This document shows, one piece after another, positions 48,990-53,805 of a DNA stretch of 64,000 bases. The first letter of the stretch is position 1. Each line of letters begins with the position of its first letter. Below the pieces are notes generated by a model that did no database searches, was not told the DNA's origin, and worked only from the letters and a program-made list of their open reading frames with translations. The stretch is from a virus (taxonomy: Duplodnaviria > Heunggongvirae > Uroviricota > Caudoviricetes). The DNA lies in the IMG/VR virus record IMGVR_UViG_3300028048_000051, positions 47,843 to 111,842 of that record; one strand, 5' to 3'. Made by a program: the position numbers and the translations under genes.

Positions 48990-49340
48990 TTATGCGTTCT
49001 TTCCCTTATCCTCCATGAAGACCGAGGCTTCTGGTGGAATAGGCATGTTCAACTTCTTGCGCTGCTCGCAGGCTTCCACGATGCGCATTTTGAGGTCGTC
49101 GGCCAACTCCTGCAAAGTGTCCCACCCGTGAATGCCGTACTTGAAATATCTCTGTACCACATCCCGGGTGGCATAATAACGATCAATGGCACGTTCCACA
49201 GTAAACAAAACATCGCGTTGTCCATGTCTGCCGCGCAGCAAGACCATACCGTTGACGGCTTCCATCAGCCCGATATTGGGAAAAGTCTGGTGGGATTCGT
49301 GCAGTCCCGCGTATTGGTCGACTTTTTCTTTTTTACTCAT
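48990..49340 (-). CDS. hypothetical protein downstream of terminase
   Basis: AAGGAG RBS before ATG 49340 (MSKKEKVDQ...). Confidence 0.65.
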   Translation of the reverse strand: MSKKEKVDQYAGLHESHQTFPNIGLMEAVNGMVLLRGRHGQRDVLFTVERAIDRYYATRDVVQRYFKYGIHGWDTLQELADDLKMRIVEACEQRKKLNMPIPPEASVFMEDKGKNA

Positions 49341-49354
49341 CTTAAACTCCTTGT

Positions 49355-52300
49355 TCAATATAAGCTGGTAGGTTCCACCACGGACACCTTTTGCATAACC
49401 GCTTCGGCAAATCTATCCCAGTCAGATCGAGGACCGAAGACCTCGTCCGGCATTACCGGAGTACCATCCGGATTGACATCGAGAATGGATGAATCATATC
49501 GCTGACCCAACCTCGGATATGCCTGGAAATGATCCCATATGGCACTGCAGCCGAAATTGACGGCGTGCGCAAAGTCGTCAGGAACTCCCGGCTTCTTTAC
49601 AATAAGAATTACTGTCTCTCCTCCGAGGGCCTTGCGGGGATCTTCTCTTAATGCCAACAAGTCGCGCTGAAAAGCCTTCTCATCGTCATCCTTGAAATCA
49701 GGAAGCAGTATCTTACGCTGCTTGATGGATTGGATCACCACCGCCAATGAGCGGCTCTTGTCCAGTGTGTACCAGTACAGGTCGGCCTCACGCTTGGCCT
49801 GGTTAGGTCGCATGATATCACCACTGCGCGGGCGGGTGTAATTGACAGGAATGACTATCAGTCCCGGGATGTTGAGAAGACCTTTCTGCTTCATGATCTC
49901 CATACGCAGAAACCCTGCCCCGCCGTTATCGAACGAGAAGCAGTCGGCACCGGTAAACTGTATCCAGCGCAGGATCTCATCAGCTTCTTCCATCGGAGTG
50001 GTCTCCTTTGGGAAGCGCCTACCGTACACGCATTCGATCACATCGGTATCATTACGAAGTCCCAACACTGCCATTGCGGTATAGGAATCCGATACAGCCC
50101 CTCCTCCCGACCAGTCCACTCCGATGCATACATACCGGTAACGATGGGCTATCTGCTCGAAGTCCTCAGGTTTGTTCACAACAGGCAAAGAAGGATCAAG
50201 TTTGGCATTGCGGATATCGGAAAGGGTTAAAGGACTGGTGGCGGCATCGTAAGGCCAACCAAACACCTCGTTATATAGCGTGAGTGTGGGATAAGTATCT
50301 ACCTTGTACAGGAGATCATTCCACTTCTCTGCGCTGTACATGTGCATCGGGTGTATAGTCTGACTGACATGATAGCCGGCAAATCGGTTGATACGCGATG
50401 GCACTGCAGCAACATATCCTCCATCTCGCGGATAAATTGGTTTTCCGCATTTGGCGCAGATGGGACCGGTCTTGCCGATCATTTTTAGCAGATGCTGCTC
50501 TGGGTTGGGTACGTTAAAGAATCCGCAGTGCTGACATTTGATCACCCATTCGGATTGGGAGGACTGATCCCAGAGCAACGCCAGCGTGGTATCGGTGGTT
50601 TTGGGCGTTCCGGTGTACACGTGGAATCCCCAGTTCATCGAAGCACTGGTGGTCTCACCTACAACCTTCAGAAATTCATACTCCACGTCCTGACAGTTGT
50701 ACGAACAGATGCCGTTGGCGAGGATGTAATTATGGGTGCCTACAACCTCGATGTCGTACACAGGGTCCTCACCTACGTATTCCACCTTGGCTATTTGGTC
50801 AAAACGGAAGATTCCGCCGACCGAAGCCGTTTTTCCCGCCGCATGCGGTTGTACTCGTCGATCTGTTCCTGCGTCATGGAGGCCCTGCGCTTGCGGCTGT
50901 TTTCGCGCGAGATAGCGCGGTTTTTCTCCAAGTCTGCGGCGTACTTTGCGGCGCGTTTGAGTCTGGCTGCCTCCTTCTGCTCGGGCGTCTCGTTGGCTTT
51001 CTTCCGATAGTAGGTTTCGCGTGCCTTGCGCTTGTATTCCTCGTATGCTTCCGGATCCGCCTTGATCCGCGCCATACGTCTTTGATATTGCTTCTTCGCC
51101 TGCGCATTCAATTTCGCATGCTTCACCGGATCGGCCATATACTTCAGATAGTATCCGCGGTCGCGCTCCAGTGCTGCCGCTTTTTTCTCCGGGTTCTCGG
51201 CCAAACGTTTGCGGTACTCGCGTTGATACAGCAGCTCCGCGGTCTTCACTTCCGGACGATGCCGTCTTCTCCTGGCCAGCGCCAGTCGATTGGCATACTT
51301 CTCCGGGTCTTGCTTGACCTTGGCATAATACTTGGCACAGTCGATTTTCTTCCTGAGTATAAAATCCGGATCGTTCTTGTGCCGCTCCAGATAAGCTCTC
51401 TTGATGGCCTTGTACACTTGCGGATTCGCTGCCCGGTACCGTCTGGCCGACTCGTTCCGCTTGCGTCGCCACTCCTCCCCGAGTTGTGCATATCTCTCCC
51501 GCGCTCTCCGGTTGATGAGTTCCCGATGATTCCTGCGCCAGTCCCGACTCTGCTGGGCCGCATGATCCCAGTGTTCCATGTAGTACTCGTGCCTCGTCTG
51601 CTTTCGCCACTTGAGCATGCATGCCGGAGAACAGCACTGGGACCTGGCTGCCGGTATCTCCTTGCCGCAGTACGCGCACTTCATCAATATCAGATCGGTC
51701 TTGTACCTCATGCACTCCGGGGCGTACGGTGTTATCAGCTGCATCAGCCGAATAAACCCCGCGTGATCCAAATAGAGATTGTATCCCGTATTCCCGGTAG
51801 ACGAATGCTTTACTTCTCTGACAGTAGAAGATACGCCCCATGCCGCCAGAAGCCAATCCCGCAGCAGCTCGTTCTCTTCTCTGGAGAAGCCGTTGGTGGC
51901 GATGTTTCCGGTGTTGTAGCCCTGGCGTCGTGAGCCGTCGTCCATGTACCACCACGCCAATGCTATCGGGTGCGTGATGTTCTCCAGAAACTCCCGGGTG
52001 ACGGTCTTTCGCTCGGCGCCGTCCGGGTGCGTCATCATATACAAGGAGTGAAATACTCCAAGGCTCTTCAATGTCAATACCGCCCAAGTGTTCCCGTATC
52101 CTGCGTTCGGTTTCGAGGACGGTGGTTTCGTAGCGAACTCTGATAATATCCTGTACTTGTGCTCCACATATGGAAGTTGCTTCTCGCCGTGGTTCCAACG
52201 TACGGCTTTCGTAGTCTTGCCGGACTTCGCAAACGCCGCGTCCCCCATCAGGCTGCCCATCACGGCATTCAGCTGCAATTCCGTCATCCCGACGGCCTGC

Positions 52301-53101
52301 ATTTGCTTTTCGAGTTCCGTATTCATGCTCTATGACCTCCGATAACCTGAGTTTCCCTTGACTGGTGCTCAGCTGATGGTCCGCGGTACATGTCAGCACT
52401 CGGCCATCAACCGTGGTGATCCGAAAGCAGGCGCGATAGCCATGGAAAGAAGCGTCGCGGACCACTCTCGACATTACCATACGCCCGTCAGGAGAGAAAG
52501 AGCGTAAAACGGAACCTGCTTGGATATTCTTACAACACAGAGATTGCCATTGCCGATACTTTCTGCAGGGGTGCGCAATAGTTGTAAGTTGTTGGCAATG
52601 AATGCTCTCGTCGCACATAACAGTACCGAGATTTGCGATACCGCGGATGCGGTCCGGCGTAGTGAACATGTAATCTTGGTAGATCAACGACCCGTTGTTG
52701 AACTGCTTCAGGGCCATTTTTTCGAGTTCTCCGCGCGTTATCAGCTGATGCCATATGGGAGAACTCTGAAGTAATGGCTTGAAGGTGGCGTTGTTGAAGC
52801 GCTGCACCTGATCCGCACGGGGTTCGGTAAGCAATATGTGATAAAAACTGACCAGGCCTGATCTCAGAATGGCACTGGTAGATAGAGTTGTCGTCTTGCC
52901 CAACTGACGACCAAACATAAACACTGTCTCTTTAGGTTGAACGGTGGAATACAGCGGAGCTACCTGGTAGTGCATCCGCAGATCCATGGGCTTGCCGTTC
53001 AAACGAAAGATGCAAAGGAAAGGAATGAAAGTCTTAAGGCTTCCGTCGCGTAATGCTTTGAAGGCGTCGGAGAAAGCCGCATTCAACACTGATGATGCCA
53101 T
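49355..53101 (-). CDS. terL: terminase large subunit (GpA-like) precursor with intein; 611 aa after splicing
   Basis: Walker A GRQLGKT; DRIRG; Walker B MCDE|CQD interrupted by the intein; coupling motif YTGTPKT; CQHC...CAKC Zn motif; nuclease motif CIGVDWSGGG...DDFAHA. Confidence 0.9.
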   Translation of the reverse strand: MASSVLNAAFSDAFKALRDGSLKTFIPFLCIFRLNGKPMDLRMHYQVAPLYSTVQPKETVFMFGRQLGKTTTLSTSAILRSGLVSFYHILLTEPRADQVQRFNNATFKPLLQSSPIWHQLITRGELEKMALKQFNNGSLIYQDYMFTTPDRIRGIANLGTVMCDESIHCQQLTTIAHPCRKYRQWQSLCCKNIQAGSVLRSFSPDGRMVMSRVVRDASFHGYRACFRITTVDGRVLTCTADHQLSTSQGKLRLSEVIEHEYGTRKANAGRRDDGIAAECRDGQPDGGRGVCEVRQDYESRTLEPRREATSICGAQVQDIIRVRYETTVLETERRIREHLGGIDIEEPWSISLLVYDDAPGRRRAKDRHPGVSGEHHAPDSIGVVVHGRRLTTPGLQHRKHRHQRLLQRRERAAAGLASGGMGRIFYCQRSKAFVYREYGIQSLFGSRGVYSADAADNTVRPGVHEVQDRSDIDEVRVLRQGDTGSQVPVLFSGMHAQVAKADEARVLHGTLGSCGPAESGLAQESSGTHQPESAGEICTTRGGVATQAERVGQTVPGSESASVQGHQESLSGAAQERSGFYTQEENRLCQVLCQGQARPGEVCQSTGAGQEKTASSGSEDRGAAVSTRVPQTFGREPGEKSGSTGARPRILSEVYGRSGEACEIECAGEEAISKTYGADQGGSGSIRGIQAQGTRNLLSEESQRDARAEGGSQTQTRRKVRRRLGEKPRYLARKQPQAQGLHDAGTDRRVQPHAAGKTASVGGIFRFDQIAKVEYVGEDPVYDIEVVGTHNYILANGICSYNCQDVEYEFLKVVGETTSASMNWGFHVYTGTPKTTDTTLALLWDQSSQSEWVIKCQHCGFFNVPNPEQHLLKMIGKTGPICAKCGKPIYPRDGGYVAAVPSRINRFAGYHVSQTIHPMHMYSAEKWNDLLYKVDTYPTLTLYNEVFGWPYDAATSPLTLSDIRNAKLDPSLPVVNKPEDFEQIAHRYRYVCIGVDWSGGGAVSDSYTAMAVLGLRNDTDVIECVYGRRFPKETTPMEEADEILRWIQFTGADCFSFDNGGAGFLRMEIMKQKGLLNIPGLIVIPVNYTRPRSGDIMRPNQAKREADLYWYTLDKSRSLAVVIQSIKQRKILLPDFKDDDEKAFQRDLLALREDPRKALGGETVILIVKKPGVPDDFAHAVNFGCSAIWDHFQAYPRLGQRYDSSILDVNPDGTPVMPDEVFGPRSDWDRFAEAVMQKVSVVEPTSLY
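50696..52606 (-). mobile_element. intein (637 aa) in the terminase Walker B motif
   Basis: Starts at Ser (SIHCQQLTT), block B TCTADH, block F VYDIEVVGTHNYILANG, ends SYN with +1 Cys. Removal restores DE-CQD. Confidence 0.9.
50791..52326 (-). CDS. LAGLIDADG homing endonuclease with Zn finger and basic helical repeats, overprinted in the +1 frame of the intein
   Basis: GSLMGDA and ALAWWYMDDGS...IATNGF motifs (two-motif LAGLIDADG_2 type). Own GGAGGT RBS 8 nt before ATG 52326, own TAG at 50791. Confidence 0.85.
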   Translation of the reverse strand: MNTELEKQMQAVGMTELQLNAVMGSLMGDAAFAKSGKTTKAVRWNHGEKQLPYVEHKYRILSEFATKPPSSKPNAGYGNTWAVLTLKSLGVFHSLYMMTHPDGAERKTVTREFLENITHPIALAWWYMDDGSRRQGYNTGNIATNGFSREENELLRDWLLAAWGVSSTVREVKHSSTGNTGYNLYLDHAGFIRLMQLITPYAPECMRYKTDLILMKCAYCGKEIPAARSQCCSPACMLKWRKQTRHEYYMEHWDHAAQQSRDWRRNHRELINRRARERYAQLGEEWRRKRNESARRYRAANPQVYKAIKRAYLERHKNDPDFILRKKIDCAKYYAKVKQDPEKYANRLALARRRRHRPEVKTAELLYQREYRKRLAENPEKKAAALERDRGYYLKYMADPVKHAKLNAQAKKQYQRRMARIKADPEAYEEYKRKARETYYRKKANETPEQKEAARLKRAAKYAADLEKNRAISRENSRKRRASMTQEQIDEYNRMRREKRLRSAESSVLTK

Positions 53102-53361
53102 TATGTTTTACCACCCGGTGATGTTCAATGTCTTATACGCATACCATATTGTAGAAAACCGTCAAACCCGACGTGTTTTCCAAACAGGAGCGCGTAACCA
53201 TGCGAGTTGAACACACCCAGTATATGATTGATAAGAAGTTGATTCCGGCCGACAGATACCGAAGGAAAGATGCTTTCGGTACGTCGCGTACGCAGGAAAG
53301 ACGAAGGCCTGATCGTACTGACGTATTGCCGGCGCAGAAACGCGCCTCCAAACAACAATAA

Positions 53362-53805
53362 GTGCGCAACAATCATATTCTTGAGGTATCGCTGGTGGTA
53401 GTACCGCCGGCGATTTTGTTTGTATTGGCCAATCCGTTTCTGTTCATCGTGATGTTCGCATTGCTGGCGATGAATGCGGAATGGAAGGCCTCACATAAGA
53501 CCAAAACACAGCATGCGATATTGGGAGCCGTGGTGACTGCATTGGGATGTATTCCGTTCCTCGCGGTAGATTCCATGCCACTGGGATCCATCGGAGCACT
53601 TCTTCTTATGGGCCTCCTGTCGTACTTGTCGTACAATCTGGGTAATGACACCCGGAAAGCCTCGATCGACGCCACAGGGCCAAATCCGGCCAAATTCAGG
53701 GCATCTGCATCAATGGCCATTGCCACTATACGTAAATCCACCAGTCAATCCGGCACTGATGTGTGGATAGACGGCAAGTGGGTACCGGTGGAAGATGTAA
53801 AGTAG
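53362..53805 (+). CDS. putative membrane protein
   Basis: Three to four hydrophobic segments; GTG start, start site uncertain. Confidence 0.5.
   Translation: MRNNHILEVSLVVVPPAILFVLANPFLFIVMFALLAMNAEWKASHKTKTQHAILGAVVTALGCIPFLAVDSMPLGSIGALLLMGLLSYLSYNLGNDTRKASIDATGPNPAKFRASASMAIATIRKSTSQSGTDVWIDGKWVPVEDVK

Follow-up and report, generated by a model that had tools for sequence, protein, structure and literature searches.

How can a phage keep a second gene of 511 codons inside one of its essential genes, on the same strand and over the same bases, when a stop codon in the first reading frame would destroy the essential gene? This question is raised by a locus in a 64,000-nucleotide (nt) stretch of DNA, hereafter the window, which corresponds to positions 47,843-111,842 of the IMG/VR record IMGVR_UViG_3300028048_000051 (Caudoviricetes). 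On the minus strand of the window, the gene for the large terminase (terL) carries an intein whose central portion can also be read, in the +1 frame relative to terL, as a LAGLIDADG homing endonuclease (HE). Judging from the sequence comparisons described below, the locus is very probably a mobile, non-canonical intein in terL of an uncultured rumen phage, which would splice in cis and whose endonuclease would be translated separately from the overlapping gene.

An earlier inspection of the letters alone (the sequence-only reading) had placed the terL frame at 53101-49355, the HE gene at 52326-50791 and the ends of the intein at 52606 and 50696, and all of these coordinates hold. It had also described a continuous terL frame with a nested +1-frame LAGLIDADG gene that has a ribosome-binding site, an ATG and a TAG of its own, and this arrangement is confirmed by the open reading frames (ORFs) and by a Pfam match with an E value of 4.9e-24. 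The parts of the locus are listed below, with protein lengths and positions in amino acids (aa), and with AlphaFold2 (AF2) models represented by their pLDDT scores (predicted local distance difference test).

49355-53101, minus strand: terL precursor ORF, 1248 aa, a gpA-type large terminase with an intein (ORF list, Pfam, tblastn).
52607-53101, minus strand: N-extein, aa 1-165, ending in the Walker-B sequence ...VMCDE, sharing 89% identity with residues 1-165 of P0068, an allele that lacks the intein.
50696-52606, minus strand: intein of 637 aa, Ser166 to Asn802, class-1 type, with a DE|S...SYN|CQD junction that is conserved in relatives.
52307-52606, minus strand: N-terminal splicing (Hint) lobe, intein residues 1-100, with block B TCTADH (predicted beta strands, pLDDT 63-87).
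50804-52306, minus strand: host-frame linker, intein residues 101-601, rich in Gly, Arg, Ser and Gln (open frame, protein sequence not conserved, pLDDT ~27).
50696-50803, minus strand: C-terminal splicing lobe with blocks F and G, VYDIEVVGTHNYILANGICSYN (Pfam Intein_splicing, invariant terminal Asn, pLDDT 64-85).
49355-50695, minus strand: C-extein, aa 803-1248, with Cys803 first (CQDVEYEF...), 97% identical to residues 166-611 of P0068.
50791-52326, minus strand: HE gene, 511 aa, +1 frame relative to terL (ORF list, Pfam, homologues, AF2 and the ratio of nonsynonymous to synonymous substitution rates, dN/dS).
52336-52340, minus strand: Shine-Dalgarno (SD) sequence GGAGG with a 9-nt spacer to the HE ATG, lying within the Hint codons for Ser-Glu-Val.
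51769-52266, minus strand: double-motif LAGLIDADG core, HE aa 21-186, motifs LMGDAAF and WWYMDDGS (Pfam, conservation, Foldseek).
51619-51678, minus strand: zinc-ribbon-like motif CxxC...CCSxxC, HE aa 217-236 (invariant Cys residues, short strands in the model).
50797-51627, minus strand: basic helical-repeat tail of the HE, aa 234-510, with recurring DPE(K/R)Y-type motifs (helices at pLDDT 80-95, conserved in homologues).

The critical observation is that the terL frame remains open over the entire length of the endonuclease gene. A stop codon in this frame requires an HE codon that ends in T and is followed by a codon beginning with AA, AG or GA. There are 154 HE codons that stand before such a codon and none of them ends in T, whereas T is the last letter of 63 of the 357 codons at other positions. 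When the synonymous codons of the HE gene were permuted 20,000 times, the terL frame acquired a mean of 14.5 stops and no permutation was stop-free, compared with the observed number of zero. The sequence-only reading had argued that such an absence of stops should not be random, and the codon shuffling that it proposed bears this out. Although the coding strand of the HE region is poor in T (16%), the third frame over the same region holds 24 stops when ~27 are expected, and thus low T content alone does not explain the open terL frame. Chance arising from composition was rejected on the basis of this third-frame count and the 14.5 stops that the shuffles predict for the terL frame.

The same layout recurs throughout the family. 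At every locus with a full family member, a host frame of ~1100-1300 aa runs through the HE ORF, and the endonuclease is always in the host +1 frame. All 16 of the tested loci, which come from independent assemblies and encode endonucleases with 31-89% identity, have no host-frame stops at all, although 9-26 would be expected. A further concern raised by the sequence-only reading was that an assembly error at the start or stop of the HE gene might have produced the overlap. However, contigs from an independent bovine-gut RNA-library run are identical to the window across the start (52192-52454) as well as the stop (50740-50890) of the HE gene, and the source run covers the region at a depth of ~101 with no variants. 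The RNA-library contigs (from runs X2 and X3) give partial cover at low depth and might include carried-over DNA, such that they are usable only as a check on the sequence; a further run, X13, contributed one piece of 171 nt only. The X2 and X3 libraries are bovine-gut metatranscriptomes from a study other than the probable source, and they also hold contigs that are 100% identical to the phage and extend over long portions of the flanking genes. This places the phage in further animals or samples.

Which of the two frames is maintained for its protein? A comparison between the window and its relative L010 (89%), which differ by no indel over 3.7 kb, reveals a change of codon-position profile at the edges of the overlap. 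Differences fall at host codon position 3 in 47 of 57 cases in the N-extein, 12 of 20 in the N-terminal Hint lobe (N-Hint), 12 of 13 in the C-terminal lobe and 201 of 231 in the C-extein. Within the overlap, 85 of the 155 differences fall at position 3 of the HE codons. Values of dN/dS were calculated by the Nei-Gojobori method for three informative pairs (window and L010, L017 and L028, L016 and L018). In the overlap, the HE frame gives 0.07-0.21 and the host frame 1.2-2.2, compared with 0.00-0.05 for the exteins. Together, the frame-specific ratios and the codon-position profile indicate that the endonuclease is the protein under selection, and that selection on the host frame goes no further than excluding stops and frame-breaking indels. 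A stop would be selected against since it would destroy an essential gene. The proposal of the sequence-only reading that selection acts on both frames therefore stands for the amino acid sequence of the endonuclease, but for the terL frame it extends to openness and not to the amino acids that the linker encodes.

The HE gene appears to be equipped for translation on its own. Its ORF begins 775 nt into the terL ORF (1 modulo 3), with the ATG at 52326-52324 and the TAG at 50793-50791. The GGAGG sequence upstream is embedded in a conserved Hint motif, (R)LSE(V/I)(I/V)E, and in the other lineages examined there is a GGAG-like element within 20 nt upstream of the HE start. In L010 the start codon is GTG. 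Given the presence of a GGAG-type SD sequence and an ATG or GTG start across lineages, independent internal initiation is the simplest reading of how this gene would be translated.

The encoded protein resembles known LAGLIDADG endonucleases in sequence and predicted fold. The Pfam match is to LAGLIDADG_2 (PF03161) and extends over residues 21-186 with a score of 85.6 bits (cut-off 25). Among 25 aligned sequences, D129, D130 and G131 of the LAGLIDADG motifs are invariant and G28 and D29 nearly so, and the four cysteines of the ribbon (C217, C220, C232 and C236) are likewise invariant. With the family alignment as input, AF2 models the HE frame at a mean pLDDT of 90.4 over 511 residues, none of which is below 50. 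The model predicts a double alpha-beta-beta-alpha-beta-beta-alpha core (residues 1-210, pLDDT >90), a ribbon with four cysteines and a helical tail that continues to residue 510. We presume that this tail serves as an additional DNA-binding region. The best Foldseek matches in the PDB are I-SceI and I-WcaI, with E values of 2e-13 to ~1e-13 and TM scores of 0.73-0.75 on the target; for I-SceI itself the values are 2e-13 and 0.74. These enzymes (PDB 1R7M, 5A0M and 6X1J) are monomeric and have two motifs, resemble HE residues ~1-210 at 20-23% identity and belong to the same Pfam family. In contrast, they are encoded by mitochondrial group I introns and have ~225-235 aa, whereas the endonuclease in the window adds the zinc ribbon and the helical tail and resides inside an intein. 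We located 36 near-full-length homologues in metagenomes (36-89% identity), all of which had been called as stand-alone LAGLIDADG proteins.

On either side of this gene, the host frame encodes the two portions of a splicing domain. The insertion point is directly after the Walker-B DE of terL, whose N-extein matches GpA_ATPase in Pfam (E 2.5e-9). In every lineage examined, the intein begins with C, S or T (Ser166 in the window). Both T74 and H77 of the block B TxxH motif are nearly invariant in an alignment of 11 sequences. At its other end, the intein terminates with VYDIEVVGTHNYILANGICSYN followed by Cys-Gln-Asp (...GICSYN|CQD in the window); the terminal Asn is invariant, and the +1 residue is Cys at every located junction (15 of 16 loci, since the C-terminal junction of L001 did not match the search motif and was left out of this count). 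The isolated C-terminal lobe matches positions 120-155 of Pfam Intein_splicing with an E value of 1.2e-5, and the isolated N-terminal lobe of the window gave nothing significant in a Pfam search (E 0.29). AF2 predicts beta structure in the host frame at pLDDT 63-87 for intein residues 1-100 and 601-637 only, and the ~500 residues between these lobes have a pLDDT of ~27.

Alleles at the same position that lack all or part of this insertion provide additional insight. The sequence-only reading had called for a search for homologous terL alleles, and both empty and mini-intein forms were located at the same site. Many intein-free terL alleles exist in the database. One of them is P0068, which encodes 611 aa (equal to 1248 minus 637), is colinear with the window on both sides of the insertion site and has a matching gene neighbourhood. 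Its junction reads ...VDE-AQDVEY..., or DE|AQD, and its length of 1836 nt equals that of the extein DNA of the window after removal of the intein. Empty alleles have A, V, C, T or S at the +1 position. In intein-bearing alleles this position is Cys, which fits the need for a splicing nucleophile. Mini-inteins of 192-211 aa are present in P0191, P0194, P0196, P0203 and P0208, and one of 264 aa is present in P0204. Their linkers still carry stretches that the HE gene encodes when it is read in the host frame (such as ...VPDIVRVRY...), and they are therefore deletion derivatives of the endonuclease region in which the host frame has been preserved. The mini-intein of P0194 scores 37.8 bits against Pfam Intein_splicing, which is over the cut-off, and matches the solved DnaE, DnaB and DnaX inteins with E values of ~1e-5. 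An in-frame LAGLIDADG_3 domain is present in more distant terL genes (P0211, P0213, P0217 and P0218).

Comparisons among these alleles also bear on mobility. Exteins that are nearly identical occur with and without the intein, as in the window and P0068 or in L011 and P0133, and the exteins of L016 and L017 are almost the same although their N-Hint lobes are clearly distinct. For the window and L010, the synonymous divergence (dS) is 0.30 in the HE frame and 0.22 in the N-Hint lobe, compared with 0.72 and 1.77 in the exteins. Between L017 and L028 the relation is reversed, with a dS of 0.50 in the HE frame and 0.14-0.15 in the exteins. This discord in both directions is suggestive, and it fits either homing or recombination. 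Synonymous divergence that is discordant between intein and exteins is also seen in L017 and L023. Furthermore, divergence from the empty allele is greatest in the part of the extein DNA closest to the insertion site (74-76% identity in windows 360-540 of 1836 nt), which looks like the result of recombination or homing tracts or of divergence in the target site.

These characteristics can be assembled into a plausible cycle. The terL gene would be translated as a single 1248-aa precursor, in which the Hint lobes at the two ends of the intein (residues 1-100 and 602-637) would meet across a disordered linker of ~500 residues. The 637-aa intein would then be spliced out through the action of Ser166, Asn802 and Cys803 to yield a 611-aa terminase with the junction ...VMCDE-CQDVEY.... 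The DNA for the linker doubles as the +1-frame gene for an I-SceI-like, double-motif LAGLIDADG enzyme whose further parts are a zinc ribbon and a helical tail that is long and basic, and this enzyme would be made from its own GGAGG and ATG located in the last conserved Hint motif. During co-infection, the endonuclease presumably cuts intein-less terL at DE|xQD, and repair would copy the whole intein into the cut allele. A candidate for the target is the empty-allele junction of L033, around GTGGACGAG|GCTCAGGAC. Most likely, the element arose when a free-standing endonuclease gene invaded a mini-intein.

Several observations weigh against this proposal of a mobile, cis-splicing intein. The penultimate His of block G is absent in the window; this residue is Tyr in most family members and Lys in L015, with His present in L025 and L002. 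Inteins without a penultimate His exist, and this residue is a frequent rather than a strictly defining feature. Moreover, the window precursor scores 26.2 bits against Intein_splicing (PF14890), which is under the gathering cut-off of 35.8 bits. A disordered linker of ~500 residues in an essential protein could be costly and may slow splicing. The presence of a second frame depresses dS in the overlap, and thus the comparison of intein and extein ages rests mainly on the short N-Hint segment. RNA-library contigs cross both frame boundaries unspliced and with no joints, but these might derive from contaminating DNA, and they do not count as evidence for transcription or for the absence of RNA splicing. 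Finally, protein splicing, internal initiation and translation of both frames, the specificity of cleavage, and homing are all steps that we infer from sequence.

Could other explanations account for the same locus? One is that the +1 ORF is the unexpressed remnant of a dead or dying endonuclease, carried within an intein that is inherited vertically as a long mini-intein. Loss of the endonuclease does occur in this family, as is evident from the mini-inteins that were formed by deletion of most of the HE region. However, we judge this explanation to be unlikely for an HE frame that has a dN/dS of 0.07-0.21, is intact in 16 of 16 tested loci down to 31% identity, retains the acidic residues of both LAGLIDADG motifs and all four cysteines, is modelled at a pLDDT of 90 over its full length, and is preceded by a conserved SD sequence and start codon. 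Vertical inheritance is also difficult to reconcile with near-identical exteins that differ in the presence of the intein, and with intein and extein dS values that disagree. An entirely different concern is that two compensating indels introduced by sequencing or assembly have moved an in-frame endonuclease domain out of frame. The genome is indeed a metagenome-assembled virus record, but an artefact of this kind can be set aside with near certainty. The 16 loci come from other samples and assemblers and all have an equal phase relation, contigs from an independent study match across both boundaries, the deep source run is free of variants, and the avoidance of stops is specific to the host frame.

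Two further possibilities concern how the overlapping frames might be expressed. If ribosomes were to shift by +1 near 52326 and then back near 50791, the product would be a functionally canonical in-frame intein. In favour of this idea, the two open frames share a strand and the points of switching fall at the edges of the splicing lobes, but several characteristics make such a pair of programmed frameshifts very improbable. The HE frame of the window and of L029 is closed by a stop that precedes the ATG by one codon (the open frame begins 'SM'), and L010 has its GTG start where the others have this stop; a shift would have hardly any space in which to occur. No motif prone to shifting was seen, although no search was aimed at one. 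The HE gene also has a TAG of its own, the conserved SD sequence with ATG or GTG indicates independent initiation, and there would be no need to keep the host frame open over 1.5 kb if ribosomes left it. Alternatively, the insert might be removed or bypassed at the level of RNA or translation, as with a group I intron or bypassing, or its halves might be made separately as a split intein. LAGLIDADG_2 or I-SceI-type enzymes are typically encoded by introns, and the related helicase locus L005 described below is a true fractured gene. Despite these precedents, we see very little chance that such a mechanism operates at the terL locus, since it would not explain why none of the 16 loci has a host-frame stop although 9-26 are expected. 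The insert is bordered precisely by conserved Hint blocks, a +1 Cys is present in every intein-bearing allele examined, and the deletion derivatives retain the host frame. The RNA-library contigs that span both boundaries carry no joints, although this is weak evidence. A search of Rfam over 49000-53500 yielded no match at E <= 1 and no intron. A group I intron was rejected on the basis of this search and the open, stop-free host frame of the 16 loci. A fractured gene with a split intein was likewise rejected for the window, whose single 1248-aa frame is unlike the separate ORFs of L005.

More distant relatives of the endonuclease (24-30% identity over the LAGLIDADG core) occupy an intein of phage SNF2/DEAD helicases at DE|C, and they do so in three layouts.

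L020:2909-5431: helicase intein locus with the endonuclease in frame.
L004:2724-5534 and L007:2676-5297: helicase intein loci with the endonuclease out of frame in the other phase (host = HE+1).
L005:2692-5380: helicase intein locus that is a true fractured gene with a split intein.

The out-of-frame loci L004 and L007 have no host-frame stops when 4.6 and 2.8 are expected, and stop-free shuffles make up 0.1% and 2.6% of the total, respectively. In L005, the endonuclease has its own SD sequence and the ATG of the C-terminal part overlaps the HE stop. The existence of all three forms in one intein family supports the view, which the authors cited below also suggest, that in-frame, out-of-frame and fractured layouts may interconvert. 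The sequence-only reading had suggested that the terL element might be an intermediate on the way to split inteins. This suggestion is plausible given the helicase family. A more ambitious and rather doubtful extension, which we offer tentatively, is that out-of-frame endonucleases in continuous inteins are common and form an evolutionarily central hub, in which a free-standing gene invades a mini-intein and the product then proceeds along one of two paths. Indels might convert it to a canonical in-frame intein, or a host-frame stop and a restart might convert it to a fractured gene with a split intein. The terL family (empty, mini and overprinted) and the helicase family (three forms) provide material to test this possibility.

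It is important to note that the arrangement itself is not new. The sequence-only reading had presented it as an undescribed third arrangement, but this claim fails. An out-of-frame endonuclease in a continuous intein was proposed by Gorbalenya in 1998 for Synechocystis DnaX, as that work is cited in two preprints from 2025-2026 (bioRxiv 10.1101/2025.01.02.630785 and 10.64898/2026.09.14.751524), and both of these describe such elements. Phillips, DeSimone & Gogarten (bioRxiv 10.64898/2026.09.14.751524) describe a LAGLIDADG endonuclease in the '+2ORF' of the dnaX intein. By layout and description, which is the basis of our comparison rather than sequence, this cyanobacterial element is among the closest known systems. 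It is a continuous intein whose splicing domain and LAGLIDADG enzyme occupy separate overlapping frames, the intein frame is predicted to be disordered where the other frame folds, and the HE frame has a low dN/dS where that of the host frame is raised. Alleles in empty, mini and full form occur side by side, and an origin by secondary invasion of a mini-intein has been proposed. The dnaX element differs in residing in a bacterial gene, whereas the window has a phage terL with the insertion at the Walker-B DE, a 511-aa HE that carries a zinc ribbon and ~280 aa of helical tail, an overlap of 1.5 kb, and an SD sequence within a Hint motif.

Gosselin, Arsenault & Gogarten (bioRxiv 10.1101/2025.01.02.630785) report antisense LAGLIDADG, antisense VSR-like and same-strand frame-3 EndoVII-like endonucleases within inteins of actinobacteriophages, many of them in terL. 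As in the window, the endonuclease lies outside the intein frame and between the splicing blocks. The authors argue for splicing from the essentiality of terL, favour an origin by invasion of a free-standing endonuclease, and report signs of continued horizontal transfer. However, a same-strand +1 LAGLIDADG enzyme is absent from their types, and the window represents a rumen phage with a gpA-type terminase. In fractured genes (Dassa et al. 2009, PMC2677866), a free-standing endonuclease lies between two split intein halves, and a related HE in L005 is arranged in exactly this manner. In contrast, the host frame in the window is continuous, with no stop after the N-terminal lobe and no restart before the C-terminal lobe, and splicing would therefore be in cis. 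The hidden HNH endonucleases of the ShiLan type in phage methylase genes (Arsenault et al. 2025, PMC11855218) are similar in that an out-of-frame endonuclease resides within a stop-free insertion, but that insertion encodes a different nuclease and has no detectable splicing domains, whereas the insert in the window has both Hint lobes. The case examined here is distinguished by a same-strand +1 endonuclease of the I-SceI type, by the zinc ribbon and helical tail of this enzyme, by the gpA-type terminase that serves as host, and by its presence in uncultured rumen phages.

The phage that carries the element is an uncultured rumen phage of ~176 kb with a gpA-type terminase. Its IMG/VR record of 175,842 bp is complete according to CheckV, and the sequencing runs that hold the region are from bovine gut. 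A megablast search with the terL region produced no match among GenBank phages, and a tblastn search matched the C-terminal 436 residues of the terL ORF to phage large terminases that are all distant; no cultured relative is therefore available. A scan of IMG/VR for close relatives with the C-extein as query found nothing, and the relatives used here came from protein collections. Directly downstream of terL, and overlapping its stop, is an ORF of 122 aa (48990-49358, minus strand), and a gene of 116-122 aa is present at the equivalent place in L010, L013 and L033 with no Pfam family on record.

Elements of this type are easily obscured by routine annotation. The gene calls for L010, L011 and L013 comprise the endonuclease and a C-terminal terL fragment of 460-484 aa, and leave uncalled ~260 N-terminal codons that make up the N-terminal third. 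In other records the whole precursor of 1190-1236 aa is called, with no LAGLIDADG domain. Because calls of the first kind drop the N-terminus of terL, terminases of this type are mis-annotated in public data.

Although the principle of an out-of-frame endonuclease in an intein was already published and is unchanged by this example, the locus adds to the inteins of this kind in actinobacteriophages and cyanobacterial dnaX those of a large group of uncultured phages from rumen and gut whose terminases are of the gpA type. A new enzyme layout is revealed as well, in which an I-SceI-like core is joined to a zinc ribbon and a long helical tail over a 1.5-kb overlap with the intein frame. Furthermore, this family is unusually well suited for study, since its near-identical alleles in empty, mini and full form mark out both the target site and the steps of a homing cycle, and since the ribosome-binding site of the endonuclease lies in a conserved Hint motif.

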